Assembly: GCA_900617105.1 (NCBI GenBank) | Contig: UYFQ01000132.1 | Location: forward strand, 1 to 64,000 | Length of the DNA stretch: 64,000 nt | Source: Hydrurus foetidus | Taxonomy: Eukaryota | Direction of reading: 5' to 3' | Shown: positions 11,135-55,407 of the stretch, in pieces | How the letters are laid out: the number at the start of each line of letters is the position of its first letter | How positions within the stretch are numbered: position 1 is the first letter of the stretch | The notes under the pieces: generated by a model | Databases searched by the model: none | What the model was told of the DNA's origin: nothing | The model's input: the letters and a program-made list of their open reading frames with translations, nothing else | Program-made: the position numbers and the translations under genes

Positions 11135-13771
11135 TAATCCAGTAAAAGTTGAAAATATATTCAACTAGTAGAAACACGAATAATCAGAGTATAATCTGTA
11201 CCGTGTGTAGCAAGCACATTCCTATCCATCAAGCACATTCCGCATTGTTCATAACACAAGACTCAATCTCCTTCGAATAGTCATTGGGACATCACATGAA
11301 CGTGTGCCATCTGTCAGCCATGACCATCTTCATACAAAGTCTCTCCCAATCATCTCCCAAATGGACGATTTTTTTCAGAACCTTAAAGCTGCAAGTAGAT
11401 CGCAGGCTACCATCGATAATTACGCTAGGAGAGAAAAGCAATTCTTTCGTTGGCTCAAAATTGAGAATCCCTCCTGTTGGAATGGTGATGATGTTATGCC
11501 TTCATTAGAAAGAGTTACTTCAGTAATGATGTGCAAGTTTATTTCAGTTCAGTCACTTATTGTGTCGACAGGAGCGATGAAGAGTTACTCTACTCCAGAA
11601 GGCCACCATTCTATGTTTGTAAATCTTTTTGGTCGTTTAAAAGTTCAATTACCAAAAACCTTCGAGAAAGAGTGGACTCAATTCTCAAAGGGGTACCGGA
11701 ACAAAGTTGCTGAAAACATCTCAGATGGAGTTACAACTACTGCTGGATCAGACAAGATTACATTCAACGAGTACAAAATGTTAGCTGCGCATGCAGCAAA
11801 GTCGAGCACTTTCTACGCTCACGGCTTTTTGGTGCTGGGATGGAATCTAATGGCAAGATCAGGTATCATTGGCCTGAAATTGTTTCAACTCTTACTATAT
11901 TTATGTCAAATCGCTAATACATTTGGTTTTACATTAGGGAGTACAGGAGACGTTAAGTACGAGCATTTACGTATGAATGGTGATCACATCATAGTGGTGA
12001 TCCCTCGTCACAAAGGGGATCGGTGTGGTGAGAATCCCACAGAAAAAGCCCTATTCTCAAACCCAACATGTCCAGAAATATGCCCTTTTCTTATGCTGGG
12101 AATTGTTTTGTTATCAAGAGAAATTTATCGTCCGCGCGATAGCATTATTCTCGGGACCAAGCTGGGTGAGAATATTAACTTATGGTTGAGAAGTGTCGCA
12201 ACAGCAACAGCTGAAGATGCTGATGGTGCGGTTGTTGGAGTCAATAGTGCTCATCTGACTTCACACTGCACCAGAAAAGGGTCCACATCATATGTTGTGT
12301 CTCTACCAGGGTTAAGCAATGTCATTGCTTGTTGGTTGAGAGCAGGGTGGCAGCTTGGTGGAGTCCTACCAGCATACATAACTGTCGAATCGGGAGGCGA
12401 TCAAACGGTTGGGAGAACAGTATCTGGATTGCCATCCGGTGGAATCGATTTCACTTTATTATCTGCGAGATTCAAGCCAGATGCAGCGATTGATTGGACT
12501 GGCATTGTTCCAAACTATGACTCCTACCCTGTGGATTTCCGTTTTATTGTCCCGTACTTGGTGGCAGCGGTAGTATACCACGCAGCTTGGATAAAGGACT
12601 ACCTACCTGAGAATCACCCTATCTTCATTGGACGCTGTTGGCGATCTGGTGCACAGATCAGCTTAAATCATTTCTGCTAGCACCATCTAGAATGGCATGC
12701 CATCAAACAGGAATGGTGGCTACAGGCATACCTCCACTGCATGCGTTCATGAATCAACAGCAGGACAGTAATTCAGCTATTTTATCTGCTATTGAACAGC
12801 ATAGCAGAGCAGCGGTAGAAAACACAAGGTCACCAATCGGTATGTGAAGCACATTGCTCTATCTGCGAATGAACTTGTAAACCACAATCACTATCATACT
12901 TCATCCTCTCAGATATCAGATTGGACAAAATTGAGTCCCTATTGCAAGAGACTCTGGATGCAGCAAAGAATTCGACATTCACTTGTTCTTGTTCCTCAAG
13001 CACAACATCATCCATAGTACCTGCTGTCAGCACTGATGCGATGGCCGCTGGAGGCGCTCGCACATGGCATTATGGGGGGAAACTACACAGAGTCCCAGCG
13101 GGTTTCAGGATGTTGACCAAGATATCACTACAAGCTCTGCATCAACTCTGGTACGACGGCATCGAGATCGAGAGAATTTGCCCTTTCCGGCTCCTGGACG
13201 GCAAAGATGTACACAAAGATGACAGAAAGCACCTTTCATCTGCGAAAGCTTTGGTGCTTGAAGTTGACAAGTTTTTGCCTGTTGGATTTAGGGCTTCAAG
13301 TTCGTCGGACAGAGATGTGGTCTGGGGCGGGGCCTAGGACGTTGGAGCTGATGTTGGTGGGCGGTTAGTGCAAGCGGTGGGCAAGGAAGGTGGTAGTCGG
13401 TGGAATAGACTTGTGTTAGTATCTTACAGTTGAGTATATACAAGTGATGTGTACGCTAAGTGCTCTCACGTCATATATGGAACTAAGACCTAAAAGTGGA
13501 ATCTGGGCGTAATATACCTATTGTACCTAGTTAACCTAGACACATTGTATCCCCTTAGGAATGCAATAAGGCTACACTACCCCTTCTTCCTTTTTTGAAG
13601 ATCTTTGATATGATATACAAAAAAAGAAAAAAAGAAAAGATATGTAAAACATATATGAGATATAGATGAAACGATTATGTCAGACTTTTACTGACTAAAC
13701 TCTCCAAAAAAGACCCGTAGGTAAAAAAAATAGGAGAGAATCCTCATGGATAAAGTTTCAAATATATTAAG

Positions 13772-18614: not shown

Positions 18615-20528
18615 TGTCTTCGACTGTCGGAAATGAGTGATGGGATTTGAAATTGATGGAGCGGAGAAACGAATTTCTCACGAAAAAAAGCTTCGGTATC
18701 GACCGAATATCGATATTGTGGTCTGGGGCGGGGCCTAGGACGTTGGAGCTGATGTTGGTGGGCGGTTAGTGCAAGCGGTGGGCAAGGAAGGTGGTAGTCG
18801 GTGGAATAGACTTGTGTTAGTATCTTACAGCTGAGTATATACAAGTGATGTGTACGCTAAGTGCTCTAACGTCATATATGGAACTAAGACCTAAAAGTGG
18901 AATCTGGGCGTAATATACCTATTGTACCTAGTTAACCTAGACACATTGTATCCCCTTAGGAATGCAATAAGGCTACAGAGATGCAGCCTTCAAAGTGGCT
19001 TTTAATTCGATGGCATCATCATTTGAATTACCTACCAATGACTTATTACAGAAAAGAAAAGCTCTCGAAATCACTGCTTACACAACACTGTACACAAAAT
19101 TTTATCTACCTAGCAAGAAGAACAAGGAATCTCATCCGTCTCATCCAGCTTAAGCTAATTATACTTATCTGATATATATTAACTCATTTTTACTCAATGC
19201 TACTGCCGTGCACCTTACTTCTGACCGACGAAAATATTTACTTTACAGCGTAAATCTTAACTACATGATCGACTGATGTATTCAGAAAGGCACAATGATT
19301 CTCTCGGCTCATTTATGGCTACAATCACGGTGACTTTTCGCATAGGTTAACAATCACGGTACTTCCAAAGTGCGGTTTACAAAACAGAGCTCACTGTTGA
19401 AAGAGCATTAGATAATTAATTAACATCATATATTGTCTCTGTATGACATCGAAGGCAGAGAATTTGAGATGAAAGAACGAGACATGAAGAAAATAATCAT
19501 ACAATTCGTGAAGTCTCTGATTCAGCCTAATAGCGTAAGGGATAAGTCAGATTATCAAGAGGCAACGATAGAGAATGATGATAAATGTGCTTGGGGATAA
19601 GAATAAAAACGTCGGTAGGAGCAAATGTGGCCGCGGTCGATTTGGCGAGCATCTCAACCTCATATCCAAGAGTTCTTCACACTGGATATTTAAACTATTG
19701 CCTCTCCGAGTGCAACAGATGGCACAAAGTGGTCATCCCAGAATGATGTAGAAAGCTGCGTGCCAAACGAGATCCCTTCAAGGAATTGGTATTCCTCCCA
19801 AGAAAAATTTGCCAGAGTTTCCCCCGTTTCCTGATAGGGAGCCAGGAAGGAAAATATGAGTTACGAGAGAAGGTTGTGTCGCGCAGTCAGTCTTCTATTC
19901 CGAAATGACAAGTCGATGGAGAGTAGGACCGAATCGTCGTCGCAGTCGCCACTATCCCCGGAATCTATGGACGGACGCTTCAGATAACAGTTCCGAACAG
20001 AGGCAGCACAGTCCAATTTTGGCTTCCAAGGCTCTGCTGTGACGGAGAAAAATGTCACATAAAGTTGGTCCTATTTCGACAGGATCCTCAAAATTTCAGC
20101 CCCATCGGTGAAACTTTTATTGTGGAAGTTGTGTCTATTGTGATCGCTGCGGAGAGACATCCGCGAAATTGAGAGCAGCAGCGCAGAGTACCACCAAAGT
20201 TTGAGTGTGGAGAAATTTTTGGACCCAGGGCTGGAATCTTTTCAACTTTTTCAGAATTATGTACATAATTTCAATTGTACACCACATAATTCCTCACTTA
20301 ATTTCCTCAAAGTTGAACGATTTTTTCAACTCTGGCTTGAAAAGTCGACTATTTTTCAACTTTTTCCGCTTATGTAGAGCTTGTGGCCGGTGCCTTGGCC
20401 GACCGGTCATCTTTTTGATGACCGGCCAATCTGCACCTACCATATTAGGGGTAAATCTACCGAAATATAGGGTGACTTTCCAGAATTTTAGGGGTAGCTC
20501 ACAAAATTCTCGTACTTTTGGGGGGTTA

Positions 20529-20697
20529 GGCTACAATTCACGGGAACGCTAAAAAGTTTTCCCATATAATTATTTTATGGTAAGGTTCGAAATTTACCCT
20601 AAACTACCCCTTTATATGGGAAAGTTTCCCTTTTTCCGCATATTTTATGGCAAAAAATTATATGGGAAACTTTTTAGCGTTCCCGTAAATTGTAGCC
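20529..20697. mobile_element. 169-bp Harbinger-type MITE, copy 1
   Basis: ~42-bp near-perfect TIR GGCTACAATTCACGGGAACGCTAAAAAG..., TTA TSD on both sides; second copy at 54254. Confidence 0.92.
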
Positions 20698-21324
20698 TTA
20701 TTGCACGGTTTTGGGTACCGTCAAGTGCCTGATTTTTTGTATTTTGTTTGGGCGGTGGACGGTCGAAAAGTGGAAGTAGAGCCTTGTCAGTCAGTTATGA
20801 TAGGGATATCAACAACCTCATCTGTTATCATAGCACAACTTCTGAAGCACTCTAAAGTAGCATATCTAGTCTTTTGCGAAACCTGGCTAGGAGTCTTGAA
20901 TTTCTTGTCGCTGCCGGCGAAATCTGCTCGAGTGAAGTCTGCTCTTGGAACTCCTTGGGAACGTCGACAATCAATTTCAAACTTTGATAGCACCTCTGTG
21001 AACGAAGAATTCATCGCGCCAGAGTAAGGAGTCGCAGGAGCATAGAAATGCCCTTGAAGCATCTGTTTCTGCAATTACGTCGAGAATGGCAACTAATCTG
21101 AGTTCTCGACTCTTAATTTTAGGATGCGAGCTGTTCTCAAGTTTTCTTCACGTGGGAAAGGCACTTTTGCTCTCAGGAGGGATCTGAAAGTTCTGAAGAA
21201 CACTGTTTGTGATGTGGAAAGGGATCCTAACAATTTGTCTGGTTAGTCCACGAGAAATATTATGGCATTTGGCTGCTTTTAAAGTACGCAGTGTAAATAT
21301 CGCAGAATTCGAAATACTTCTCAA

Positions 21325-21748: not shown

Positions 21749-24521
21749 TTAATTATCTATTTCCCCTTCCATTTCTCTGTTATCTTCTTCATCTTGGTTC
21801 TCTTCTTCTTCAATTCTGTCAATACTTTCTATGTACCGCGCGTAAAGCCCCCTCTCAAAATCAATTTCTTGATTGGCATCTGAGAATTCATCAGCCACAG
21901 TTTCACTCTCAAAATCTAATGTGCCCTGTGGTATGACAGGTAGTGTTCCAGATGAGGCCGCTTTCTCGTACGTGACGAAAGTGGGTGGCACTGAAACATC
22001 TTGTGACTCCTGCGGTAAAGTTCCTGTCTTGATAAATGATGCGTTAATGCATCTTTGGAATTTTTCCTCTGTAAACTGTTCTTGGAATAATAGAATAAGA
22101 TCCTTCATTCCCTCTAACATCGTAGGTTTTGTTGGGGAAAATTGAACGTTCCTACGCTGATCGAGTGGGAACTCCATATCAGCTAGTCTCTCCCTCTTAA
22201 ATTCCTGGAAGCTCTCATATAGTCTCATTGCCCTCTTGTTCTTGATGTGGGCTTTGATAGGTCCGTTCACAACCAGATCCAGTACATGTTTGGGGGTAAA
22301 AATGCGACATCTACCATTGTTTCAGCGATAACACTTTTGACACTGCTTGTTTTGTGGCTTCCACAATTGTCGCACCATATCATTAATTTGCCGAATAGCT
22401 CCTTAATTGGCTTCATCACTAACTCAAACCACATGACCATCCTCGTTGTGTCATTCCAGGCTTTGAGTTGGCTGGTGATCACATGGCCAGTGACCGTATG
22501 CCTAAGGTACGTACATCGATGTAGAGCTGTGACACCTTTGATAGTTAGTTCTTTTTCCCATACGCTTATTTCCCAACCATCTTGTGCTGTGAATCCTTTT
22601 TTTTGAAAAGCTTCGAGATAACTTTCATTCTTGTTTGATCCGGCCTTGCTTCAGAGCTAACCGAGTGCTTGATGATCAGCATCAAGGGAGCGAATTTGCC
22701 CACAGCGTTCACTGCTATCACTGCAGTAATGCGCAGCTTCGTATTTGAAATTCCGATGTTCGTGGCTCGCTGCTGGTCAGTGGGACAGAAGATGTGGGTA
22801 GGTCCGATGGAGTAAGTGAAGGCTGTTTCGTCGAAGTTATAACAGGTGTGCGGTTCATGACTTTTTTCGACGTACATACTTTGGCCTATTTTCATTATTC
22901 TCACTATTTCTGCATCTGTTGGAAGATTTTTATCATCACACGTTATTTTTCTTCTCGACATCCCCCCACGTTTTAAGAAATTTTGCACCCACTTGTTGGA
23001 AAAAGTCAAACTGCTTATTTTGTTTTCAGCACACCACTTCTCACTTTCCTGTACGCTTTTGGCGGCAGTAATCACGATAGCGTAAGAATATGTGACATTC
23101 AAAAGCACTCTGACAACATCGTTCTGTGGAGCATAACATATATTTGAGATTAGGTTAGTTTAGTTCTGCCGAAGAATACGTTACACTTGTCAGATATTTG
23201 TTACCTTTTCAAAAACAGTTAACATTAATTTTCCCCAAACTTCTTTTTCAAAAACTTCAGTTAGTTTGGGTCCTCTTGTTTTCTTGTTTTGATCATTTAC
23301 TTCATACCATCGAGTGATCGTTCTAGGACTAACATTTGAATAATATACATTTTCCTTCAGTAGTGATGCAGTAGTTATCGCGGCTAATCTTTCACATTTT
23401 TTTAATTGTCTTTCTCTAGCAACTTCAAGAACCACTTGGAATAGAGCTAGAATCTCACATTTATCATCCTATGTAAAGGTGATATATTTAACAGCAAAAT
23501 TTGATGCTGCTTCAACGATTCGATCTTCATCTTCTAGGTTTATTACATTTATGTCTTCGTCGCTTTCTTCGCCAGATTCTTCTTCAAATTTATTTACTTC
23601 GTATTCTTCGAAATCACTCCTATTTCTTTTTCTTAACTTCTTCACCGCCGATTCTAAATAAAATAACGCATGTTTGTCCCCAAAGGACTCCACTGCAGAA
23701 AAAAGAACTTTTTTTGTACTGTTGTAGATCGCTTTAGATCCAAGTCTATTTGGCGATTTCCTCACTTTATACTGTTTTGTCATAAATTGACTGTTATTTG
23801 TTGATGCATGACTAACATCTGTTGGAGGTGATTTTTGAGAGTCTTTTATGGGTGTTGGATTTATAGCCAACGGTAGGTATAATGTACCAAATACTGAACA
23901 CGGTGTGCCATGAATCGACTTCTCGTACCCTCCTAGCATCAAAAGTCTATTTCTTACATTCAAGATCTCTTCCAAAGTTTCAGTGTCACTCTTTTGCTCA
24001 CTCAGACTTCGGTGTGTTCCAAATTTTATCTCTATACTTCTCCTGGATTCTCCAAGGTCGAAGAATTCCAATGATTTCTTCTCATCCTGATACATTTCTA
24101 TCGCTGTGATGCCCCACTTAGACAAATGCCTTTTGAAAAGCAGCAACCCTTGCTTCAGTGCTACTGGATTCAAATGGTAGTTGGGGTGCATGGCTCGCGG
24201 CAAACTGTTCAAGATTTCTGCAATTTCCTCTGCACTCCATTGGTAATTAGTGTTAACAACATCAACACTATGACAAATAACGACTATGGCTACCATGAAA
24301 GCGCAGTAGTCAACGGTAGGGCTGTAAGTTTTGAGGTTCGCCTTCATTTCTGGACGGTTTTGAAATCGCTGTAATGTAAATTCGCTACAATTCCTTTCCG
24401 AGACTTCCACTGATATTCCCTTAATAGATATAATAAACTGTATGTCGCCGCGGTGGCGCAGTCTGTAGGATAACTCTTGACGAGAAATTTGCCATGATCC
24501 TCGCAGCCACAAAAAAAGCAC
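21749..24521 (-). pseudogene. Disrupted DDE_1/CENP-B-type transposase
   Basis: FSNKWVQNFLKR HTH, NFDET, WCDNCGSH, FLPPNM..VLDLVVNGPIK catalytic motifs. Intron 23124-23204, in-frame TAG at 23469, frameshift in the T/A run near 22600, apparent deletion near 22287. Confidence 0.88.
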
Positions 24522-25707
24522 GAGATTTTGTAAAGTCCGATTCAGAAGTGGATCAGAAGCGAAATCGCGAAACGCTTCAGATTCAAATTAAAGACTCCTT
24601 GACTTAAAAGGATCAATTTTCAGAGTTAGAAAGCATCCTTTATTGGATGTGCTGTGAATGATGAATGTTCGACATCAATGAAACATCAATGGTGATGCCC
24701 AATACTGTACAGAGGTCGTAATTCCAGAAATAAAAACACAAAAATAGGCACTTGACGGTATTTGAACCCCTTACACGGTTTAAATCATTGGCCGGCCGGC
24801 CAACCAGCCAATGGCAGAAATTTTAGGCCGGCCTGTTGTGATTTGTGGTCTCACAAGGGCATACGTATGTGCCAGTACGGCTGGTCACAAGCTCCCCACT
24901 GCTCTCTCCGAGGGCTCTTTACTGGTCGCAATTCGTTTGCGAGAGAAGAGTTGGAATCGGCTACGAGATTGGGTTAATTAGCACTGCCACAGTGCAGTGA
25001 TCGCAAGTTGTCAACGTTGTATTGGTACCAGTTTTAGTGTCTCTAGTCTACGTGTGTATGTCGTATGTCAGGCGTTTGAATCAGCATGTACGTACGACCT
25101 AGGGTTCATTCAATACGGATAATAGCATCACAAGTTGTATTTTGTATATCAGTGTGTATTTAGTATATGGTTATTTTATATGATATTACTACACACCCCT
25201 ATGATGTGTTGTTCGTATTTAATATCAAGGTTAATATAAGTGGCTATATTTTCTAATAGATTTGACAATTAAAATTTAATTCAAAAATGTTCAGGCAATT
25301 CAAGGTGTTCTTATGTCTTAACTTATGATCACCGGAATATCACGTCGGCGTCGTGTACTTATCGATCTCTGATCAAAATAATTGCATATATGTTGGTAGA
25401 ATGTAGTAGAAATAGAATGAGTTGATGTTTGGAGTTTTCATCTCTGGTCTTCAGTGTTCGCGTCTTGAGTGTTCAGGTCTTGAGTGTACGTGTCTTGTAA
25501 GTACGGATCTCCAATATGACAGTCTTGAGTCTTGAGTGTTCAGGTCTTGGAGAATGATGTTGTAGGGTAGAAGATTTCGAACGGAAAAATAGAATCGATT
25601 CAAACAGAACATAAATATTATACAATGCATAGGGTTGATTTTTGGCCGAAGTAGTAGGAAAGATTTCGGAAAAGCGTAGGTAGAAGAAAAATAATGGAGT
25701 GGAATAC

Positions 25708-28700
25708 TCAGGTGATGTTGAGTAGTAAATTTCTTAGAGCTCTGAACTGCTCTCCTTGTAGGGGTTTGGTCAGCATATCCGCTAACATCTCTTTTGTCGG
25801 TTTGTAGGTCACTTGTACTTCTTTATTTTTTATCCGGTCTGTCAAGAAAAAGTACCGGATGTCTACATGTCTTGTCCGTTCGCTGTTGGATCTCCCGTTG
25901 GTTATAAGTTGGATTGTTGATTTGTTGTCTTGGAATATGATGGCTGGTCTGTTGGCGTATCCTTGGGCTATGATGAAGTAGCGGGTCCATAGTATTTGAT
26001 TCGCTGAATCACTAAGTCCCACTAACTCCGCCTCCGTACTCGACTTAGTAGTAAGTTTTGAGTGGAGCTCTTTGCATAGATGGATCCTCTGCCTAGGGTG
26101 ATGGTGCTTCCAGTGTGGCTCTTCATGTCTTGATGCACCCCATATGATGCATCTGTATAGGAGATGACAGTCAATGGATCGTCAATAGTGAGGGTGAGAC
26201 CGAGGTCTCGGGTACCACGTATGTACTGGACAGTACGTTCCAGCTTCTTCATATCATCCGTCTGGGGCTTCGTCACTCTCTTTGTCAAAAATGCTACCGG
26301 CGTTAAGATATCCGGTCTTGATCTTTTGCTAAGATAAAGCAACTTGGCTGTAATGGAATGAAAGTATTCACGAGCAGAAGTGGTTAACAATGGGTTAGTC
26401 GCTTCCGGTAAAACCGAAAATAAATCCGGCTTAGCCGGTGTAGGTGACACCCCTAGAATGTCTTTACAGTCTTCTAGCAGCTCCTTGATAAATCCTTCCA
26501 TAGTTATAATAACTTTTCCAGCTGTCTCAAAATTGAAGGTCATACCTATGTAATTAAGTACTTTTCCTCGATGTTTTGTTAGTCCAGGGTATAAGTTTTC
26601 AATTTCATCAATAACATAATCAACATGTTTTTCATCACAGCAAGTTATCATCATGTCATCAACGTGGATTATTAGTGTAGTTTGTTTATTATTAGATTCA
26701 GTTCTGTTAAACACACATATGTCATAAGGGTTTACAGTATACCCTAACAATGATAAGTCATGTGAGATTTTATCATACCATAATTTAGCAGATTCTACAC
26801 ATCCATACAATGCTTTTTCAGTTTAACAATGCATGTGCCTTTATCATTAACATATTTGGTATATGATTTATCAATAGATATTAACACTCCAGTCAAGTAT
26901 TTATTCAGTCGCATATATACAGTGTGAGTGCCCTCTAAAGGCATATCACTATTCAAAAATGCACCAGGAAAATCAATTGTAGCTATCGATCTACATTCAT
27001 GGGCAGCAATTGAAGCAACAATAAACACGCTAGTAGTACTAACAGTTGGTGAAGATCCATTGTCATATATATCTCTGTCTTGTAAGTGGCCTCCTGCTAC
27101 TAATCTAGACTTAAGCTTATCAAATTTACCGTCCGCCGTATACTTATCCTTTAAAAACATGCTACTAGTTATGATGTTGCTTCGTTGAGTCTGACTAAGA
27201 GAGCTGATCAACACTCCCTCCCAAACATCTTTTTCACACATCTGTTGCATTTCTTTTCTAATGGACTCTACAGCAATATTGCCTAACTTATCAATGCCAT
27301 CTTTAACAGTCATGTTGAAAGCATATGAAAAATTGGTGGATGGTACATGATTCACAGCACTACATCTTATAGTGTAATTTCCTCTCCTAGGAACCCATCT
27401 GCCTGGTTTATGATTTCTAGCGCTACGTCTCAAAGCAGGCTGTTCTATCTCAGGCATTGCATCGGTAAGTACGTCATCAACAGCGTACGTATTATCAATA
27501 ACATCATGTGGTTGATATGGTGTAAGTACATCATCTTCAGTGTGCACATCATCTACATCAGGTGTAACATATTCAGTCAAAGTATCGTCATACTCAACTG
27601 GTTCAATATTCACATCATCAGTTCCTGTCTGTGTGTAGTCAAAATCATCTTGATTATTCATGTCACTCATATCATTAATGTCAGGTACATCGGATATGAT
27701 ATCAATTTCGTTTATGTCATTCATCATGTATGGAACGGGTGCATCATGCTGTACGTTCATTTCATCAACGTATGAATCATCATACATTTCATCTGTGTGA
27801 GGTGTCACTGCATGGCTGAATCTACGCATATTTTTGTTATATATATTTTCATCATCATAGTCAAGTCCATCATCAACTATCACACGCTTATTCTGTTCAA
27901 ATATAGGTTGACTAGCATTATTATTTTTGTTAATGTTTCTCTTTTCAGATAATCCATTAATGTAAGTTATGACTTCATCAGGCATAGGTAATGATGTGGC
28001 TTTTGTACGTTTCACTATCTGTACGTTATTGAGTAACATGTAATACCAAGATCCCTCAAGGTTGCCTGCACTCATCAGCTCGATAGCACCTGAAGTTCTG
28101 GCTTTATTACTGTTATCAATATTGTCAGAATGTACTTGCACGTAGTCACCAAAACCATGTTTCAGTTCTTTATCTACGTTAATCTTTCTACCGTATAGTT
28201 TCTCCCTAGGGCTAACATAGTCAACAGTGTTCCTTGTCGGAACTAACACTATACGGTTAACAGCATATCTAACTAACCATCCTTCTAACTTCTCAGTTAA
28301 TTTAAAAGGTAGTGTGTTAATAACTGCTCTAACTCTCTCTTTAATCTGTCTTATCTTACGCTCAACTACTGTGACTGCCTCTCCTGCACCTGTCGTATCT
28401 AGTGCAGTACCTATACTAGCTAACTTAGTTTCAAACCAAACTGAATTGATCGCGCCTTCACCATCAACTCTAACTAAATCTAATTTGAAACCATACTTAG
28501 TAATATGTCTAATATCGCTCTCTAGGCTAGTCCATAGTGTGAGGTTTGTTCTATTATTTAACTTATTTACCATAACATATTCTAATGGCTTAACAACGGC
28601 AATTAAAAATGGGTTGCCGTTAACAAACATTATGTCTATGTACATTATCTGTTTTAAATCTTGTATGTTATCTAACAGAGGTTGCTCATCTTCAACCTGT

Positions 28701-29530
28701 GCCTGATGGCTTGGCGTTTTGCCCTTTAGGGAGCCCAAGTCAGGACCCAAGATATCCAATGACCTAACTACATCTTGGGCTGTAATGTTGCTATTGACTA
28801 GTTTACCTTGACCTATCAGCTTAATTAGCTGACCTGGACTAACGTAACCTAATTTCCTCTGATATTCTCTAGCTAACTCAGCCTGTTTTACCTGTCTAAC
28901 TGTATACTTTTTCGTCTTGTCGTTCACAGTAGTAACTAACATTAACTTAGGTTTGCTTACCATAGTGTTCAAGTTACATATATATATATTATATTTAATA
29001 TCCCTATTGAAGTAATACCAACATCCGCCTCTTTTAATTTGCAAACTGTAAAAATCACCTTTGCTATCATACTTCACTGAGTGACTATTATTTACCATAT
29101 TTGCAAAAGACAAAATGTTTGCTATACAGTTAGGGTCATAGTAGACTACTCCAAAATCTGTCCTCCCGCACTCTGTGATCGTCAATGGCTCTCCTCAAGT
29201 GTTTACTCCATTAACGACCATAGGTGTATGTGCAGGTACTATATCATAGAACAGTGTGTCAGTCCTAAACACTGATTCGCCAGCACATGTATCAAGCAAC
29301 AGCAAATCATCACCAAACACTTCAGGATTGTCAGTGATATCTATGCTAAATATGTTGCTATCTACGGTTATCGTGTCCGTCTCTATCTCAGAATCTTGAT
29401 CATCTATATATTTAATTTGTACATATCTAGAAATGCGTACGTGCTTGTCAATTTTATCCACAACATCAGTCACATCATTATTAACATTACTAATCATGTC
29501 ATCATGTAAAGAATCATATAACTGACTTAC
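25708..29530 (-). pseudogene. Copia-1 pol (PR-IN-RT-RH) with an in-frame TGA at 29195 and frameshifts near 26815 and 26057
   Basis: LLDTCAG protease; IDIMF/DGEGA/ERKIR integrase; KSRLVAGG, DFPGAFLN, LYGCVES, HVDD RT; TDASY, SSTEAEL, QDN, ADMLTKPL RNase H. Confidence 0.92.
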
Positions 29531-30765
29531 TTTCCCTTTCCTTTGCCGGGCGGTGTCGTGGATTTTCCACCGGGGCTCTTGCCTCCTTCGTCTCCCCAGT
29601 ATTGGGCTACCGTGTCTGCGGGGTCTCCCCTGCACTCGTAGGCCAGGTGGCCGAATTTTCCACAGTTGTTACAAGGGCCTCTCTTGTACCCCTTGGGTGG
29701 TGTGGCTGATGCAGTGTAAACTGCTGCGGTAGCTGCAGGAGATCCTTTCTCGCTGCTGTTGCTGTCGGGCGAGTCTATCCCATCCCTCACCCACCTAGCG
29801 CCAGGCGCGCTCTTCCCGTTATGTCCTCCGGGGTATCCTCCGCGCCCTCCTTTCTTTCCTCCTCTCCCAGTCATGGAGAAGGCATTGGCTCGTTCCATAG
29901 CACCCGGTGAGTTGTTCAATATCTTCGTTGGTCTGAACTTCGACGCTTCGTTGTAGGACTCCTCTAGACTGTCTGGCCATATCTTCAGACTATTAATATA
30001 AAAGTTTTTGAACTCCGAATAGTAGTTGTTAAGTTCCAGTATGAACTTTACTGCCATTCTCCCTTCAGGATATAGATCATCTAACCCCGTCCTGCCAGCC
30101 GCCTCAAACGCTTGTTGGATAGCGGTGAGGGCTGACTTAGTGTTGGTCAGGTACGTACTTAAATGCTCGTGTGGTTGCATGACTAAATGATCATATCTCT
30201 GTTGGATATTATGCATTTGGTGCTCCGCACCAAGTGTTGAGTCTCCAACGTGAGTAGCAAGGATGGCTTGCATTAATTTCCTAGGGTCCTGCTCTGATTC
30301 TGCTTGGACTCCTACGTTGACTTCCTTCACTCTTATCTTTGAATTTTCGGACATCTGTCCGACCATTGCTCCATAGAGATTCTGTTTGTCCTCCTCTAGC
30401 TTTGATCGAGCTTTTATGTGCTCTGCTTGCTCAAGTTTCCATATATCCCTGTCGTCCTGGCTTGCTCCATCTCCAGGTGGTGGTGGTGTAGCTAGGACTG
30501 GGTAGTCGCCTAAAGTGCCGTCTGCACCAAATATAAGACTAACTTTAGACTTAAAAGTTGTCATGGCGTGCTCCTTCATCTTTCCCATGAACTTAGTTAC
30601 AGCTCCAGGGACAATGTCCTTTCCCGGTTGTAAATCTAAGTAAGTTCCAATTGACGGGATGTTTCCTTTAATGTGGTTATTTGCGCCAGCTCCTCTGCCA
30701 CGGTTACCAAAATATCCTCCTCCTTTGCCACGTCCTTGTGGTGGAGGGTTTCCACGCCCTTTCAT
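29527..30765 (-). CDS. Copia-1 gag
   Basis: ATG 40 nt from the 5' LTR; CNNCGKFGHLAYEC knuckle; RGG-rich segments. Confidence 0.88.
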   Translation of the reverse strand: MKGRGNPPPQGRGKGGGYFGNRGRGAGANNHIKGNIPSIGTYLDLQPGKDIVPGAVTKFMGKMKEHAMTTFKSKVSLIFGADGTLGDYPVLATPPPPGDGASQDDRDIWKLEQAEHIKARSKLEEDKQNLYGAMVGQMSENSKIRVKEVNVGVQAESEQDPRKLMQAILATHVGDSTLGAEHQMHNIQQRYDHLVMQPHEHLSTYLTNTKSALTAIQQAFEAAGRTGLDDLYPEGRMAVKFILELNNYYSEFKNFYINSLKIWPDSLEESYNEASKFRPTKILNNSPGAMERANAFSMTGRGGKKGGRGGYPGGHNGKSAPGARWVRDGIDSPDSNSSEKGSPAATAAVYTASATPPKGYKRGPCNNCGKFGHLAYECRGDPADTVAQYWGDEGGKSPGGKSTTPPGKGKGK

Positions 30766-32678
30766 AGTTGCAATGTCGTATTGCAATCTATGAAGTGCTA
30801 ATTATGTTGTGATTTGTGGTCTCACAAGGGCATACGTATGTGCCAGTACGGCTGGTCACAAGCTCCCCACTGCTCTCTCCGAGGGCTCTTTACTCGTCGC
30901 AATTCGTTTGCGAGAGAAGAGTTGGAATCGGCTACGAGATTGGGTTAATTAGCACTGCCACAGTGCAGTGATCGCAAGTTGTCAACGTTGTATTGGTACC
31001 AGTTTTAGTGTCTCTAGTCTACGTGTGTATGTCGTATGTCAGGCGTTTGAATCAGCATGTACGTACGACCTAGGGTTCATTCAATACGGATAATAGCATC
31101 ACAAGTTGTATTTTGTATATCAGTGTGTATTTAGTATATGGTTATTTTATATGATATTACTACACGGCCAGGCCGACGCCTGATTTGGTCGTCGGCCACA
31201 AGCTCTAATTATATGAGTATAGACCTGCGTAGGGGCATAGGCATATGCGCATATATATGCAAACGGAAAATAAGCCTATATATGCGCTTATATAAGCAAG
31301 ACCTAATTACATATGCAAATTACTATAACAGGCCTAATGTGGATTAGTATATGAACCCAGTACAGAATACAGATTTATATGTACAGATTTTTTATATACA
31401 GATTTTTTACAGATCCTGCCGCTAGTGCTGAAGGAGCCATGCATGATGACGAGGAAGAGAACTTAGAGATCGATTTCGAGTACGATGTTCCTGACTTAGG
31501 AAGAGACGTATTAGCGGCTCTACTGGCTGCAGCTGGTGTGCAGGAGCATGGAGATTTTGGAATGTGATGGCCTTGTTCGAATCGATAGTTCTGCTGGCCG
31601 CAGCTAAAGTGCAGGAAATATTAAGATTTGAAATGTGACCACCTTGTTGTAATCGATTTTAATGATCTAGCGTATTTGTCTCAATGTATATAACGTACAA
31701 CACTGGTCACTTCAATCGACTATCTTTTCTGATGCGACTTACATAAAATAGACTTTACACTCTATTCCTCAACTTTGAGCCTCTCGATCGCGATCAACAA
31801 TCACAAACCCAAGATGACGGCAGAGCACATTGATTTCTTCAGATGCTGGACTTCTGACGATTGATTTCTTGTTCGGAACGCTCTAATTATCAGGTAAGAG
31901 AATCGCAGGGTGCTTTGAGCAACCGAAACCTTATTCCTGTGGATCGCAAAAATCTCAATCAGAGACGAGTTTTTCTGATGCCTCGATTTGATCCCCCAGA
32001 TTAATCGAGGTCGTCTGATCAGACAGGATCGATCTTTGAGGTGTCGTGATGGGGCTGCGAGTGGATTTCTTTCCCTTGAAGGTGTGAGTAATGACATTTT
32101 GCCGATTGTGTCATCACATTGGGTGCATGGTTTTTAGCGACTATTTTGTCGTGTGCCACAGTCAATTAATTGATTCAGCTGCTGCCTCTTTGCACCTGAT
32201 ATGCTGTGGGGTCTTGAACGAAGTCTGTGAGCTCCAATCTGCTGAATCTGTCGTCCCTAGAAATCGGCAGCTTCTTTTTTGACCATCTCTTCTCTATATC
32301 TCTCCTTCTCCAGTTCTTTCATCAAGGAATGAACCCTCTTTGACTGCGGTACGAAGTAGGTGGAGATGTTTTTCATCTTCTTCAAGTTGCTTGACCACTC
32401 TGCTATGAATATTACTCCTATGCATGGCTCATCGCACAGCTCAGGAACGTGCATGGCTCAAGATGGCATCATTTCCTGAGTGCCGATGCACGGGTATAGG
32501 ATAATTTGAAAATCTTGAGCATCCGATCCTGAGCTATCCGAGCTTTACGTTACTCTCCGTATAGTTTCTATACGGTACTTCTCACTCCTCAATGCATATA
32601 TTTTGCATATATATGCATGACCGGATGAAAAGTGCATATTGCCTATATATAAAAAGATTTTTTTGCCTATGCCCCTTC

Positions 32679-35600
32679 TGTTGGAGAATCTTTAGGTTCC
32701 TAACACTGGAGTGAGGAACGCGGACCTTCAGTCTGGAGATTCGAATACCAAGGCTTGTGAGATGAGACTCTTGTTATCAATATTCACTTGTTAATTTGAC
32801 TGTGCCTCATCCCTACTGAAGCCCTGAGTCCCCTTTCAATGCAATGATAAATTCAAATCTTACTCTACTGTTGAAGTACGGTGATCCAACCAGGTCCATA
32901 CATCTTCACCACGTATGCACACACACACACACACAGGTTAATCCGTATGCCGCTGTACGAATGCATAAGTACACATAATGTGTTCGTGTCATGAACTCAG
33001 ATATATCCAACACACCCCTATGTCACCACACATTTGTTCGCAGTTTGATATTCAAGCATTCGTTTTCTAATAATATTTAATAGTTTAAGCTAAGTCTTTG
33101 TCTGGCCACCCCGTGACCCCATATCTCTCCGATTTGTACTGCGCTCCCTGGAGCGGTTTGGTCAGCATGTTTGCATACATGTCCTTTGTCCCGAGGTGCA
33201 CGACCTTGGCCTCACCCATGTCGACTCGCTCCTTCAGCCAGAAGTACTTGATAGAGATGTGTCTAGTGCGCTCTGCCGCTGACCGCCCGCGATCGATAAG
33301 TGCCATGCATGACATGTTGTCTTCGTAGATAGTCACTGGTCCACAGGAGTGTCCTTGACCTATGATGAAATTTCTGACGTGTAGAGCTTGGTTAGCGGAG
33401 TCAGACAGCGCCACCAGTTCTGCCTCCGTACTCGACTTCGTCACGATCTGCTGCTTCGCAGATTTGCAGTGCACTGCACCCCTGCTTCCCACCACGATAC
33501 AACTACCAGTGTGCGATCTTCCGTCCGGGTGCACTCCGTACGCTGCATCTATCAGGACGCTCACAACTATCCCCTTGTCTCCTGGAGCGAATATTATCCC
33601 GCGTTCTCTCGTCGCCCAGATGTATCTCATCAGCCTGTCCAGTTTCGCTAGGTCGTCCGTAGTGCACTTCGTCACTCGAGTGGCGAGGAAAGCCACGGCA
33701 GTCAGACAGTCCGGTCTAGCTCGCTTCGCAAGGTACAACATCTTCGCTACTTGTCTGTGAAAAATGACTCTTTGTTCCTCGGTTACCTCTGCGATGTCTG
33801 GTCTCACGTCGAATAGTCCCTCCGTCGCTGGTGTTCGTGCACCCTTCACCGTCCCTACTTCCTTCAGCATGTAATCCACGTAGCCTGTCATCGATACTTT
33901 CGCTACACCTGGTGCTGTCAGGTCGAACACCATTCCAAGGTAGTTGACGACAGGCCCGTCTTTTCTCGTGATCTCGCCGTATCTCCTCTCCAGTCCGGCT
34001 GCTAGCGAATCGATCATGTCCGTATCCGTGCTTGTGATCATCAGGTCGTCTACGTGGATAGCTATGGAGCACTGCACTCCGCGAGCACGCATATGTCGTA
34101 TACATTCGATTTGTACCCCAGATTGTGTAGGCTCGCTCTGAGGTTCTCGTACCATAGTGCGGCTGATTCCACACATCCATACAAAGCCTTGTCTAGTCTC
34201 ACGACGACGCATCCCCTATCGTCCATGAACTTTGAATAGTGTGGTGCAAGCTTTACCATCATTCCTGTCATGTTCTTATCTAGTCTCATATGAACCGTGA
34301 GTCCGGTGTCCATGTCAGCGTTTAAATATGCACCACTGATGTCTATAGCTGTCACTTTGCGACCTTCGTGCGCTGCGATACACAGCAGGGTAAATACAGA
34401 GCTGGTTCCCACGGTTGGTGCGGACAGGTCATCGTAAAGCGTCTTGTCCTGCTGGTCGCCGCCAGCCACAAGTCTAGCTTTGAGTTTCTCAAATTCTCCG
34501 CTCGCAAGGAATTTCTCCTTTAAGAACATACTCGATCTGATTATGCGTGCCTTCTCCTCTCTTGGAAGTCTCTGCACGTCCACGGGTGTCCACACTTTCT
34601 TCTCTATCATTTGGCTGAGTTCTTTCATTATCACACACTCTGCGTCCTTTCCTCTCGTACGCAATGCCTCATTCACCGATATGTTTAGTACATACTCTGT
34701 CCAGTCTCCACCTGCTGAGTTGTAATTACGTGTGAGGAGCGCCGCCCCTTGTCTGTCTCCTCTGAACATGTTCATCAGCTTCTGTCTAGGTATCACCATG
34801 TGTCCGACTGACGAGTATCTGTTCTCTTCATCGAGTGTTTCGCTGTTTTTCTCTGTAATTTCTGTGCCTATTGCTCTGTTCTCCCCATAGTCCTCGGGGA
34901 CTCCTTGCTCATCAGCGTCCTCGTGTGGAGATGCACGTGGTTGACCTACTGCGAGCTGTCTGAAACTGCTCATGAGATCTTCCATTTCGACCGCTTTCGG
35001 TTCTACACGCACTCTCTGAGCAGGCACCATGTCATCCACGTAGTTCGACTCTTCGATGTGCAAGTCATCCTGCTGAGTCTCACCCACATCGTCCATCACT
35101 TGGTCCGTTTCGCAGTATATCAGTTCCTGATTGTGATTCGCATCCATAAGAGACACCGATGGATCAACCCCATTGTTCACCTCTGCCACCATAGTCTCGG
35201 GTAGACCGTTTCTGACGTCCCCATCTTGCTCGAAGGTCACAGTTCGTCTCACTAAATCATCCTTCCCTTTGACTCTCCCATCAGCCAGTGCTAGCTCGTT
35301 CAACTTCTTAATGACTGACTCGGGCATCGGCATGACAACGAATTGATCTCTGTTGACGAGCTTCCCTGTTGCTAACGAGAGCATTCTGACAGTCCCGGTG
35401 CGGTTCCCTAGTGGGAGCATAGCGACGCAATCTTCTGTTCTCGATTTGAGTGTCGCATCCGTGTTCGGCACTGTGCATTGCACGTAGTCGCCGAACGAAC
35501 ATCGGAAGTCTCTCTTGCCATCTGGTTTCCTTCCTATAAAAGCCTCTCTTGGGCTGGGACCCCATTCCCGATCCCCCGCGGGTTCATAGTTCAGCCTTGA

Positions 35601-38254
35601 TACTACGTACAGTACGCACATTGCGATACCTACGCTCGATAATGTAAAGGGAAGATGATACGACACGTATGCACGTAACCTTTCTTTAATTACTCGAATC
35701 CTCCTCTCTACTCTAGCAACGTGTCCACCCGCACCGCTGATATCGACATCGACTCCTAGCTTCCCGAGTTCGTCGACTAGCGTAACTACAGCTCCCTCTC
35801 CATCGCTCATGATGACTGAGGTCTTAAAGCCTTGGGATCCTAGCACTCCGAGGAAATGGGCTACTCCTTTCCTTACATGCTCTGCTGATCTGCTCGACTT
35901 CTTGAGCACCAGATTGTTCAGACTATATGCTATAGTCAGTCCTAGTGGAGTTGCCAGACCGATTAGAATAGCAATTTTGTCTATGAACATAATATCGATG
36001 GCTAGCACCTGATCCTTTTGGACAATTTTCGCTTTGATCGTCATATCAGCTGTAGCAGTCGCGCGTTTCGTAGTCTTTCCCTTAACGGAAGCCATATCCT
36101 TCCCCCAAATTGCTTCAGCGATCTCAAAATCCCTCGATGTGATATCGAAGTTACTCCCGGAGTTAATGATAGACATCGCCATTCCAATTGTCGGAAATCC
36201 CATTCGACTCATCAGCTCGCGCGCTGATCTCGCGCGACCGATTTCCCTCTTAGTGAACGCTCTCAAGTTCTGCTCCACTGTCGTTACCATCGCTGTCTCG
36301 TTCTCGATACTTCGCCAATCGCAGGAGTAGAACCTTCCTTCGCTACCAGGTAAAGTCTTCCGACCAAATCTGTAGATGTTGTCGCTATCCTTCGGCTGCA
36401 ACGTGAAGCAGTCATCCTCGTGCTCGTAACGTATCGTAGCTCCAGCATCTACCTGCGACGCAAACGATAGGACGTTAGCAGATGCATCTCCGCTGTAATA
36501 CACGGTCGCGAATTCTCCAAAGTCTCCTTCACTGTCGACAGTAACACCCCCACCAGTCTGGATTCCACTTACTTTGATCGAATGCTCCGCCTTGCGTATC
36601 CCGGTTAGTAAATCCTTATTGTTGAAGATGTTCAACGATGCCTCATTGTCTAATAGGACGTCGTATTGCGTGAACAGGCACCTTTCGCACGATGTGATGA
36701 GTGCAATTCCCCATCCTCCTTCATGACTTTCGTCGTCACTGTCCGGTTCACATTTCGTCACGTGGACTTTGTCAACTACTGATTTTCTGTTGGGGCAGCT
36801 TCTTGCGATGTGCCCCTTTCCTTCACAGGCGTAACACTCAACGTCGGCTAGCGATTTCTTTTTGGTCCCTCCGGTCTTCCCGGCTTGTTTCTCGGTGTCT
36901 TTAGAGATAGTGACGTGAACTTCCTCTGTTACTAGTGCGGCCCCTGAGGGTGTCGGTTGCTGTTCCTAGGGTGCTCCACCAATCCCTTGCCAGCGTGACG
37001 CTATACGGTATGCTCGTGCGAGTGTGGGGGGGTAGGCATCAGCCTTGTGTCTCAAGGCGTCGTTGTTCATGGCTTCGGTCATGACCCTGTAACGTTTCTG
37101 ATCAAGCTTCCCCAGGAAATCTAGTGCGCGCAGTGAATCGGTGATCTTCGTGACTCCGACTGCGTCATTGGCTAGCACCTGCTCATCAAATCTTGCTTTG
37201 AAAGTGTTGATGAACTCCCTCTCCCCTTGCCTCATCATCCCGTACTTACACTCTTGTTCGTGTCTGTTGACTTCTCTCATCGGGTCCGAGTCCCCATACA
37301 TGTGGGTGAGGTGTGTCTTCCTTATGAGCGTCCAGAGTAGTACACAATCCAGTGTTAGGTACGCGGTTTGGTAGTCATCCTCTTCCTTAACTCTGCTCTG
37401 TGAGCTCGGTGACATCCGCTTCCACATCATCGGGAAAACCGTACGTTCGTTTTCTTTCTGAGTCTTGAGGTCTCTCTGCCTCTGGATGTAGTCCTCTTCT
37501 CTGTATTTCGCTCTCGAGCGTTCCGCGGCTTTGCGTCGCCTTTCGTTTCTAACCTCTCTCGCGGCGGATCTTGCTGGTTTACCCGCGGCGTAGGCTAGGC
37601 GTGCAGCTGCTTCTGCTGGTGTCACTGCTGGGGGTTCATCTTCTTCATCCCCTGGAGCGTCTGGTTCCGATTCGGACGTCGAGTCTTCTGACGACGATGC
37701 GTCTGGATATTGGATAATGTTCCTTGGGAGTTCGTATCTCACGTCCGTTGTGAAGAACATCCCAACTATGCCGTATAGTTCGGTGACTATAGTTTGCATA
37801 TTCTCTCGCCATTTTATAGCGTTGTTGAATTTGCCGTATTGAAGGATGCACTCTTCAGTGCTTTTCAAAGCTTCGACGGCGCGTTTTGGAGGCATGTCAA
37901 TGCCGACGACAGTCAAATTATGTTGGAGAATCTTTAGGTTCCTGACACTGGAGTGAGGAACGCGGACCTTCAGTCTGGAGATTCGAATACCAAGGCTTGT
38001 GAGATGAGACTCTTGTTATCAATATTCACTTGTTAATTTGACTGTGCCTCATCCCTACTGAAGCCCTGAGTCCCCTTTCAATGCAATGATAAATTCAAAT
38101 CTTACTCTACTGTTGAAGTACGGTGATCCAACCAGGTCCATACATCTTCACCACGTATGCACACACACACACACACAGGTTAATCCGTATGCCGCTGTAC
38201 GAATGCATAAGTACACATAATGTGTTCGTGTCATGAACTCAGATATATCCAACA
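32679..38254 (-). mobile_element. Copia/Ty1 LTR retrotransposon, family 2
   Basis: 334-bp LTRs 32679-33012 and 37921-38254 (TGTTGGA...TCCAACA, 1 difference seen), 5-bp TSD CCTTC, PPT-like CATAGGGGTG. Confidence 0.97.
33085..37895 (-). pseudogene. Copia-2 gag-pol, a single frame broken by TAG at 36966 and a small deletion/frameshift near 34085
   Basis: Frame continues through the TAG into a CYACEGKGHIARSC knuckle, LLDNEAS protease, IDIMF/SDGEGA/ERRIR integrase, KARLVAGG, LYGCVES, HVDD, KSSTEAEL, ANMLTKPL. Confidence 0.92.
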
Positions 38255-38405
38255 CCTTCACAGGTATAGACTGTATGACTGTATCACGACTAACGAAGGA
38301 GTGGATTGGCACACAACACTCAACAATCAACATTGTTCCTTCGCAGACTGCGACCTTATCTGCACCGTGTCAGGCATCTTGCTCCTGAGCGGAGGTGTAT
38401 GTGAA

Positions 38406-52849: not shown

Positions 52850-54253
52850 CCCAAAACGATGGAAATTGCTGCGGTCAATATTTATTTCGCGAATGTCTCA
52901 GATATTTCTTATTTCCCCGAGGAGGACGAAGAAGCCACTCCTGCTCATCTGTGACTTGTCTGCATGTCCGCGTGGAGATGTGATGCACCAAAGGAGTTGG
53001 AGATTGGAGAGTGGAGACGGATCATCCCGTTTTTCAAATATTTCTGCCATATTTTTGAATTTTTGTTTTATTTTTACACACAAAATTGAAAACCTCGCGA
53101 CTTTTTAAAATTTCGAATGAGTTTTGAATGATTAATTACATAAGTTCAGTTTGGTTAACGTTGAAGAGCGTTGGCTCATTAGTAATTGCTGGGATGAAGA
53201 GTGGCACTGACGTGCGATTTGAATTTCGATCGATGGATGATAATCACATCGTAAACGCTTATATCGAATATCGCTAAAATTAGTAGAACGATACGGACAC
53301 AAAATGTGAGGCGTTCATCTGTAGCAGTTGTCTTGCAAGAAAATCATCAAATCCATATGTTTTCTTATGATTTCAAATTTGTAGCAAACTAACATTGACA
53401 TCCTGCAAATAACCGAAGGTGCATCTCCTGAAGAAGTTTCTTGCATCGCGCAATAATGATTTCTCACTATTTCATGCTCAGAATTCAAAGTGACAGCGGG
53501 TTCTGAATTCTATTTACAGACTTCAGTTCTAAAATGGAACCAGAACCCAGAATTCGAACCTCGGACCCTACTACTGAAAAATTCCGACAAAAAAATCTGT
53601 GTGTGTGCAGCGTACGTACTGTACAGGTTGAACGTTTCTGTTTTTTCTTTTTTCCTCTGGAGGTTTCCGTTGGAGTGAGGTAGGAGGGAGGTGCTTTAGC
53701 ACAATGAGTACTGGACACTAACAACACAAACAGTCTGAAACCAGTCTGTAGTAAATGAGGAAACTATCAAGGCTCATGAATTATGAAATGCGAATCATTT
53801 GGTGTCACTGCGTATTTGTTCCATTTATAATTTACAGCTGAAAGTACAGTAAATTGAAGCGCGGTGATTAACACCATAAATGAATAGAATTGAATTCCAA
53901 GCATCCTACCAATGTCAACCTTACGTGGCTGGATGCTCCTTTAAGATGACAGTATTGTGCAAGTCAAAACAAGACAACACTTTTGAGGATTTTCTTGAAG
54001 CATATTTGACGAATATAGAGTGAGAATCGTTGTTCTCAGCGGTAATTTTTGAAAACAAAAAAATGGTATTCCTGTTTAGTTTTGACTTCGACAATATCCC
54101 TTTGTTCTCGGAACACTGTGAGCAATTTGAATAAGCATTGTGACACATGGCAGTACACGCTGCACTGCTCAAATTTGATTGTGAATATCATCTGGTCGAA
54201 GATGCTCACTACACCTTGCTTCTTCTCGCATACCCAAAATTTCACGGAAATTA

Positions 54254-54422
54254 GGCCACAATTCACGGAAACGCTATAACGTTTTCCCGTACAACTATTT
54301 TACGGCAAGGTTCCAAATTCGACCTAAATTACCCCTCTTTATGGCAAAATTTTCCTCTTTCCACATATTTTGTGGCAAAAAAACACAAGGGAACTTTTTT
54401 AGTGTTCCCGTGAAGTGTAGCC
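54254..54422. mobile_element. 169-bp Harbinger-type MITE, copy 2 (diverged)
   Basis: Same length as and colinear with 20529-20697; TTA TSD on both sides. Confidence 0.88.
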
Positions 54423-55407
54423 TTAAACGTTAGTTTCCGTACGTGCGTATCATATTTGACTAATAAAGAGCGGTGAAAAATGTTTTCTCAATTAAATCTA
54501 GTGCAGTAATTTGATTTTCTAATTTAATCGTCACCACGACAATGCATCGCACCACATCATAGAATTGCTTCCTCTTTATAATCGCCTCTTGTCTTCGAGT
54601 TTCAACTTTTATTATTTCATTTCGTTTTCATTTTAATTTTCGTCTTTTGTCTGGACCAATTCTGAAATAAAAAAAAACTCATTTTATAATTTGTTTTTTT
54701 AACTCGTGTCTAATTTTTTAAGATATCGTTATTTGATAGGGTTAAAGCGTCCGAAATAGATATCTCAAAATAAGTCTACTGTACCAAATGTGCGCTAACA
54801 AAAATTTTCTGAAATAATGCTTCCCTTCATTATTTCAAACATCAGATAAATTGTAACTTTAACTGTATCGTCATCATTTAACTGCCGTTTTATCAAATTT
54901 TAAAATACGAAAAATGTATGCATGTTCTTGAATAAATCAAATAATAGTGGTGATATGTATCGTGTAGCTCGCCTGATGAGATAAGCGCTTTTCCATTTTA
55001 TATTTCATGCAGTATTCCTCTCCGTAATTATGAAAAACAGTTCGGAAAAAGCTGTGATTTTTATCAACAATTTAGTCCGTCATCAGCACACTATTCTTTC
55101 CTTGTGTAATCACACTTTGTCGATACAGTGCGACATTTCGTAAATATGACAAGTCGTGATTTAGTATGATGTTCCGAGAAGAAAGAAAAAAAGAAAGAAA
55201 GGAAGGAAGAAAGAAAGAAAGAAAAAGGAAGAGAAAGAAAGAATAAGAAGTGAATTCGTCTTCTTCCTTCTTTTCGGTCATCTCTCAATCTAATACTCTC
55301 CTTTCTGATGTTTTCCGTGTTCTCTTCGACAATTTCATTCCAACTCCTGAAATTTCCTAATCAAACCCTCATGCAACTCTTGAAATTTAGTACTTCATTC
55401 CTCTATT

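Follow-up and report, generated by a model that had tools for sequence, protein, structure and literature searches.

The Ty1/copia retrotransposon E2, located in the 64-kb window (the whole stretch of DNA that was analysed, 64,000 nt), carries directly behind its 5′ LTR a primer-binding site (PBS) that is perfectly complementary to an arm within the LTR itself, and this complementarity recurs across the E2 clade while the letters on both sides change freely. The pairing is real and clade-wide with self-priming as its most likely reading, and we put the probability at about 0.75 that the E2 lineage primes reverse transcription in a Tf1-like manner, using the 10-12 bases at the 5′ end of its own RNA in place of a tRNA. 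Experiments have demonstrated self-priming for Tf1, a Gypsy element; for one plant lineage of Copia it is a prediction only (PMC7175516, PMC6317226). If the reading holds for E2, a protist Copia clade would self-prime without the Tf1 structure, which would make tRNA-free priming either common or repeatedly evolved and would bear on the proposal that hairpin priming preceded tRNA priming (PMC3601003). The clade would further offer dozens of natural primer/PBS pairs for testing RNase H cutting of an RNA-RNA duplex, and its arrangement explains why PBS finders based on tRNAs would overlook elements of this type.

Anatomy and classification of E2

E2 is a Ty1/copia LTR retrotransposon, with TG...CA LTRs, a 5-bp target duplication, a polypurine tract (PPT) and a Copia-type reverse transcriptase (RT; RVT_2, E = 1.4e-14), and RVT_2 was likewise found in 21/21 aligned relatives. 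A profile search of E2 gave no chromodomain match, and its RT is not of the Ty3/gypsy chromovirus type. Pfam and PDB sequence searches gave no match for an integrase in E2; a D, D, E motif conserved in the alignment of relatives and a weak structural match (the best hit of a low-confidence model, pLDDT 41, is RSV integrase, E = 0.0095) suggest that the region upstream of the RT is a putative integrase. The two LTRs differ from each other at one site (37944) and both contain the arm, the RT is frameshifted near 34085-34215, and contigs from two public DNA runs differ from the E2 copy at both this frameshift and the in-frame stop closing gag. Relatives do not have that stop and form single ORFs of about 1490-1650 aa; 44 relatives have a single ORF of more than 1480 aa. 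The E2 copy is young but broken, and the mechanism proposed here is that of the family and not of this copy. Named chrysophyte proteins are among the matches of the adjoining host gene (38-46% identity), which makes a chrysophyte or a near ochrophyte the probable host.

Table 1. Positions of E2, its parts and the sister family E1 in the window
Feature	Position	Strand	Remarks
E2, LTR retrotransposon	38254-32679	-	LTR pair and 5-bp target duplication
E2 target site duplication, GAAGG	38255..38259; other copy 32678-32674	-	
E2 5′ LTR, 334 nt	37921..38254	-	TGTTGGA...TCCAACA, 7-nt terminal inverted repeat
E2 3′ LTR, 334 nt	32679..33012	-	second copy of the arm at 32803-32792 (offset 5242)
E2 LTR arm, predicted self-primer	38034..38045	-	ACAGTCAAATTA; LTR nt 210-221; perfect PBS complement
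E2 PBS	37909..37920	-	TAATTTGACTGT; abuts 5′ LTR; start not TGG
E2 U3/R hairpin (predicted)	37990..38070	-	38070-38061 with 37998-37990; encloses the arm once upstream sequence is attached
E2 U5 stems (predicted)	37928..37984	-	GAATCT/AGATTC (37984-37979/37933-37928), GTTCCT/AGGAAC (37961-37956/37943-37938); not kept in L102
E2 gag, 309 aa	36966..37895	-	ATG 13 nt past PBS; closed by in-frame TAG
E2 zinc knuckle, protease-like, integrase-like region, RT, RNase H-like region	33085..36965	-	
E2 PPT	33013..33022	-	CATAGGGGTG; directly before 3′ LTR
E1, sister family	24834..31164	-	LTRs 31164-30805 and 25193-24834; target duplication GGCCG
E1 PBS and arm	30804-30794; 30956-30946	-	

Pairing of the PBS with the LTR in E2 and E1

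The preliminary description had placed the E2 PBS and its LTR arm at the positions in Table 1 and had called them a perfect 12-nt complement, and on re-reading both letters and coordinates were exact. The PBS TAATTTGACTGT follows the LTR end TCCAACA (37921) without a gap, the arm ACAGTCAAATTA pairs with it at offset 0, and the pairing ends at 12 nt on either side. We took as test statistic the longest perfect complement that starts directly after any CA and has its partner upstream, and as null 500 dinucleotide shuffles per region (LTR plus leader), or 28,000 shuffles over 56 regions. A rule blind to pairing, which placed the LTR end by the longest terminal inverted repeat, was dropped; it was noisy and often chose sites in gag or in the middle of the LTR, and we therefore tested every CA position against shuffles. 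None of the 500 shuffles reached the 12 nt of E2.

In the sister family E1, which adjoins E2 and whose RT-RNase H is 46% identical to that of E2, AGTGCTAATTA/TAATTAGCACT pair over 11 nt at offset 0 in the register of E2 (11 nt in 0/500 shuffles). As described beforehand, GGC precedes the arm in both families, and their LTRs cannot be aligned (best blastn E 0.6). The 10-nt PPT sequence is identical in the two. Taken by themselves, E1 and E2 would be weak evidence of covariation, because their arms cannot be aligned. The position of the arm at LTR nt 209-210 in both families was considered and set aside as a coincidence, with U3 lengths of 54 to 350 nt among relatives.

Pairing across related elements

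Using a full-length alignment as query, we collected 101 loci, namely 78 from metagenomes (out of the best 80 of at least 553 confirmed) and 23 from genome bins. The latter (L079-L101) are loci of these eukaryotic elements in bins labelled bacteria, presumably as contaminating contigs. Scans of viral contigs confirmed no relatives, nor did a metagenome scan with gag only. After removal of 30 loci shorter than 2.5 kb, 15 in which no region separates pol from gag or precedes gag and 2 in which it was too short, 54 were scored; their RT-RNase H is 36-56% identical to that of E2, and none belongs to E2's own subclade. Pairing was detected at P ≤ 0.05 in 41/54 and at P ≤ 0.01 in 33/54, and the 43 positive sites (these 41 loci, E1 and E2) are spread across the whole RT-RNase H tree, a quick, unrooted tree built without outside references. 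Their arms are 9-25 nt long and, in 40/43, lie 63-221 nt from the LTR end. The preliminary description had read the two window families as natural covariation pointing to conserved self-priming, and the relatives support this: a scan of related Copia elements for the PBS complement inside the LTR was positive in these 41 of 54 loci, with differing letters, and the complementarity is not absent from intact relatives.

A chance origin, or a recurring copying error that leaves a functionless inverted copy, might gain from AT-rich arms, which match more readily, and from five loci that reach only 9 nt (P 0.06-0.10). The shuffle test nevertheless largely refutes a chance origin already, as pairing of at least 10 nt occurs in 36/54 scored loci and in 1.1% of the 28,000 dinucleotide-preserving shuffles; the register is moreover fixed and the arm stands in both E2 LTRs, and we regard this explanation as extremely improbable. 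Thirteen loci miss P ≤ 0.05, which counts against the self-priming reading. Among them, L008, L020, L023 and L056 have 9 nt at an AACA end (P 0.06-0.07), in L005 and L073 a variant LTR end is followed by 10 and 11 paired nt, L050 matches at 15/16 nt, L089 is nearly identical to L090 and differs by one change, L041 appears to pair over 15 nt when its two LTR copies are combined by eye, and the region of L032 contains no LTR. Inspection of L021, L027 and L031 gave no convincing pairing, and L017 and L025, counted as positive, are doubtful for their long loops and odd register. Two branches of the tree stand out in other respects. L012, L062, L075 and L094 form one, in which L062, L075 and L094 have the LTR end TATCA and a PBS starting with CTT and still pair over 14-15 nt; L010, L051, L057, L058 and L063 form another, with the longest arms (14-25 nt).

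The PBS letters bear on whether a tRNA is involved. No positive PBS starts with TGG (0/43), as that of a tRNA-primed Copia element would; the first base is T in 19, C in 15, G in 5 and A in 4, and the arm follows it. Half-molecules of tRNA, as in Bianca, Osser and FunCo1, are a known primer in Copia with sites that are not TGG-initial (PMC6317226, PMC5445492), and if such a fragment primed here, the LTR match would be secondary; PBS positions 2-4, mostly AAT (34, 35 and 32 of 43), could be taken in its favour. We consider this very improbable, since the 43 positives hold 42 distinct PBS 10-mers, which is incompatible with one tRNA, and since single-base indels move both arms together. A search with Rfam over 30600-38400 gave no tRNA match (only two weak, unrelated matches), and no tRNA genes were found within the 64-kb window.

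The pairing could instead be a structural element that serves packaging or dimerisation or regulates gag translation, with priming by something else. The gag ATG is close to the PBS in E2 (Table 1), in relatives it mostly lies no more than 60 nt from the LTR end, and the PBS starts are partly palindromic (AATT), as is the hairpin site of fungal GalEa (PMC5445492). The right arm, however, begins exactly at the LTR end (AACA stands directly before the PBS in 31/43), where a primer must end for a correct LTR, no alternative primer site is visible, and a downstream hairpin partner of at least 8 nt was found in 0/43, so that we rate a purely structural role as rather improbable.

A compensatory change in a close relative

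The sole close relative of E2 with DNA, L102, has an LTR that can be aligned with that of E2. One base is gone from both of its arms (CAGTCAATTA/TAATTGACTG), the outermost pair is lost, 10 pairs are kept, and its U5 has diverged from that of E2 while the arm pairing persists. As judged from the aligned letters, this two-arm deletion is the most direct compensatory change that we found, and it adds to the support for self-priming from the 41 loci. In the predicted U3/R hairpin, 9/9 pairs are kept in L102, 2 of them through a change on both sides, in a comparison of two sequences only. The nested stems that the preliminary description had drawn in the loop fared unevenly: all six words are present and GTTCCT/AGGAAC and GAATCT/AGATTC are predicted with probabilities of 0.99 and 0.84, whereas TTGG/CCAA reaches only 0.06. 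As a conserved part of the mechanism the stems fell away, as they are not kept in L102 and the E2 loop folds no better than shuffles (z -0.7).

RNA start site and predicted folds

The outer edge of the arm lies at or just after CA in 34/43 positives compared with 12% in shuffles, and at TCA in 25/43 compared with 3.9%; we take this motif to resemble a YCA initiator. Because the edge falls on CA/TCA clade-wide and folding predicts the helix only when the RNA begins at that edge, we infer that E2 transcription starts at 38045 or 38043, the A of a CA, with L102 slightly favouring 38043. In an E2 RNA starting at either position the arm-PBS helix has a predicted probability of 0.96, and the probability is at least 0.5 in 38/40 folded loci. 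Once at least 25 nt of U3 are attached, it drops to about 0 in E2 because U3 pairs with R, which weighs against self-priming in E2 insofar as the model hangs on the start site. Across the clade, masking of the arm by U3 is marginal (helix probability below 0.5 in 16/39 loci with native U3 and 8/39 with shuffled U3; Wilcoxon P = 0.048). The R-U5 loops have only a little more structure than their shuffles (mean z -0.9, 9/40 at z ≤ -2; upstream controls, mean z -0.4, 3/37 at z ≤ -2).

In RNA data from two runs on a single sample (6% of either run was read), with the sense direction set by the strand of the adjoining host gene, the host gene was covered and no sense depth was seen over 37820-38119; the E1 LTR had 0 and 4 reads in these runs, none of them sense. 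Over 37820-37930, 8-9 RNA reads run antisense to E2; their source is a related family with a match to the gag start and the PBS region and a differing U5.

By the self-priming reading, transcription would start at the outer edge of the arm, and the 5′ end would fold across a loop of about 110 nt (R-U5) onto the PBS, as the predicted fold suggests. By analogy with Tf1, the element's RNase H would then cut after ...AATTA (38034/38033) and free a 3′-OH, from which the RT would copy U5 and the rest of R before the usual jump to the 3′ R. The RNA expected on minus-strand strong-stop DNA would be ACAGUCAAAUUA or its last 10 nt. One protein feature speaks against the reading: the last acidic position of the RNase H is N (YAN.LTK) in E2 (33130-33150, minus strand) and in 20/21 aligned relatives, and D in E1 and the relative P0119.

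The arm might also be the primer without any Tf1-like cut, if it came as a ready-made 3′ end, such as a short abortive transcript, a 3′-processed R end or the end of the second packaged RNA. Such a supply would agree with the variable arm length, with the missing pretzel (see below), with junction flanks that are neither consistently paired nor unpaired in the predicted folds, and with the E2 arm end, which reads AATTAA and which we take to resemble a poly(A) signal. The initiator-like edge and the cis helix in 38/40 loci suit a folded 5′ end better, and folding predicts that U3 masks the arm copy at the 3′ end in both E2 and L102; we hold a ready 3′ end to be unlikely, yet the least improbable of the alternatives.

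Comparison with known systems

In Tf1, the RNA's opening 11 bases anneal to the PBS and RNase H cleaves between base 11 and base 12 (PMC7175516), and Tf1/Tf2 of Schizosaccharomyces pombe, Tj1 and the Tf1/sushi group are Ty3/gypsy chromoviruses that self-prime without a tRNA site (PMC7175516, PMC4600332). E2 resembles them in a PBS that abuts the 5′ LTR and is complementary to a stretch of about 11 nt inside the LTR, taken as the RNA 5′ end, and in having no tRNA site; it differs in its Copia RT and the missing chromodomain match, and its clade, known from sequence only, in the variable arm length. Two duplexes flank the central one in the Tf1 'pretzel' (bioRxiv 2022.12.06.519325). In a search for ungapped duplexes of this type, 0/41 loci were significant on the leader side and 8/41, E2 and L102 not among them, on the U5 side (Wilcoxon P = 0.015 without and 0.10 with G-U pairs), and in this search the three-duplex pretzel around the PBS was not found in the E2 lineage, which tells against a route like that of Tf1 in its details.

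Self-priming is not a new idea for the Copia superfamily, since it is predicted in 89% of 203 elements of the plant TAR lineage (Houba, Osr-1; PMC6317226). By their description TAR elements share with the E2 lineage the Copia type, the predicted self-priming, a 5-bp target duplication and mostly one ORF (PMC6317226), but were described from plants, whereas the host of E2 is probably a chrysophyte. The diatom CoDi elements (Maumus 2009; 'Branch 1' with GalEA in Llorens 2009) are likewise Copia elements of a stramenopile, again compared by description only, and no named reference stands among the 240 matches listed for the E2 lineage; the main texts of PMC2806351 and PMC2774666 mention neither primer binding nor self-priming. 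Our literature search, in which subscription journals and GyDB/Repbase were thinly covered, found no report of self-priming in stramenopile Copia. Fungal GalEa Copia elements carry a Conserved Hairpin Site in place of a tRNA PBS, a 9-nt motif of conserved sequence with first motif CTAATTAGT and an inverse partner 12-41 nt downstream, for which no LTR complement was found (PMC5445492). The E2 lineage is similar in its lack of a tRNA PBS, and CTAATTAGT recalls the TAATT start of its PBS; unlike GalEa, it has its partner upstream in the LTR and a free sequence.

Beyond E2 itself, we tentatively propose, at a little under even odds, that a large and old stramenopile Copia clade, in chrysophytes as well as diatoms, self-primes as a rule and independently of Tf1. 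Its mechanism would be simpler, with no pretzel and with a primer of 9-25 nt of any sequence, defined by nothing more than the start site and an NAAT junction. Some families may in addition use a U3/R hairpin to conceal the spare primer copy at the 3′ side, leaving the true 5′ end as the only one able to pair.

Other elements in the window

A young Ty3/gypsy chromovirus at 18977-13316 (minus strand; RVT_1, rve, chromodomain) lacks a TGG site as well as any LTR complement longer than 4 nt. Its PBS position (18717-18692) holds the 12-nt palindrome AATATCGATATT, which includes the last A of the LTR and overlaps the hairpin TTCGGTCGATACCGAA, an arrangement that recalls the fungal GalEa hairpin site. 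A 489-aa ORF at 11211-12680 (plus strand) gave no Pfam match; its motifs look to us like those of a Crypton-type tyrosine recombinase. Broken pieces of a pogo/Tc5-like transposase (weak HTH_Tnp_Tc5) lie at 21749-23159 (minus strand), a partly palindromic, MITE-like repeat of 175 nt occurs in two copies (20526-20700 and 54251-54425), and 63098-63188 contains a 43-nt inverted repeat, also MITE-like.
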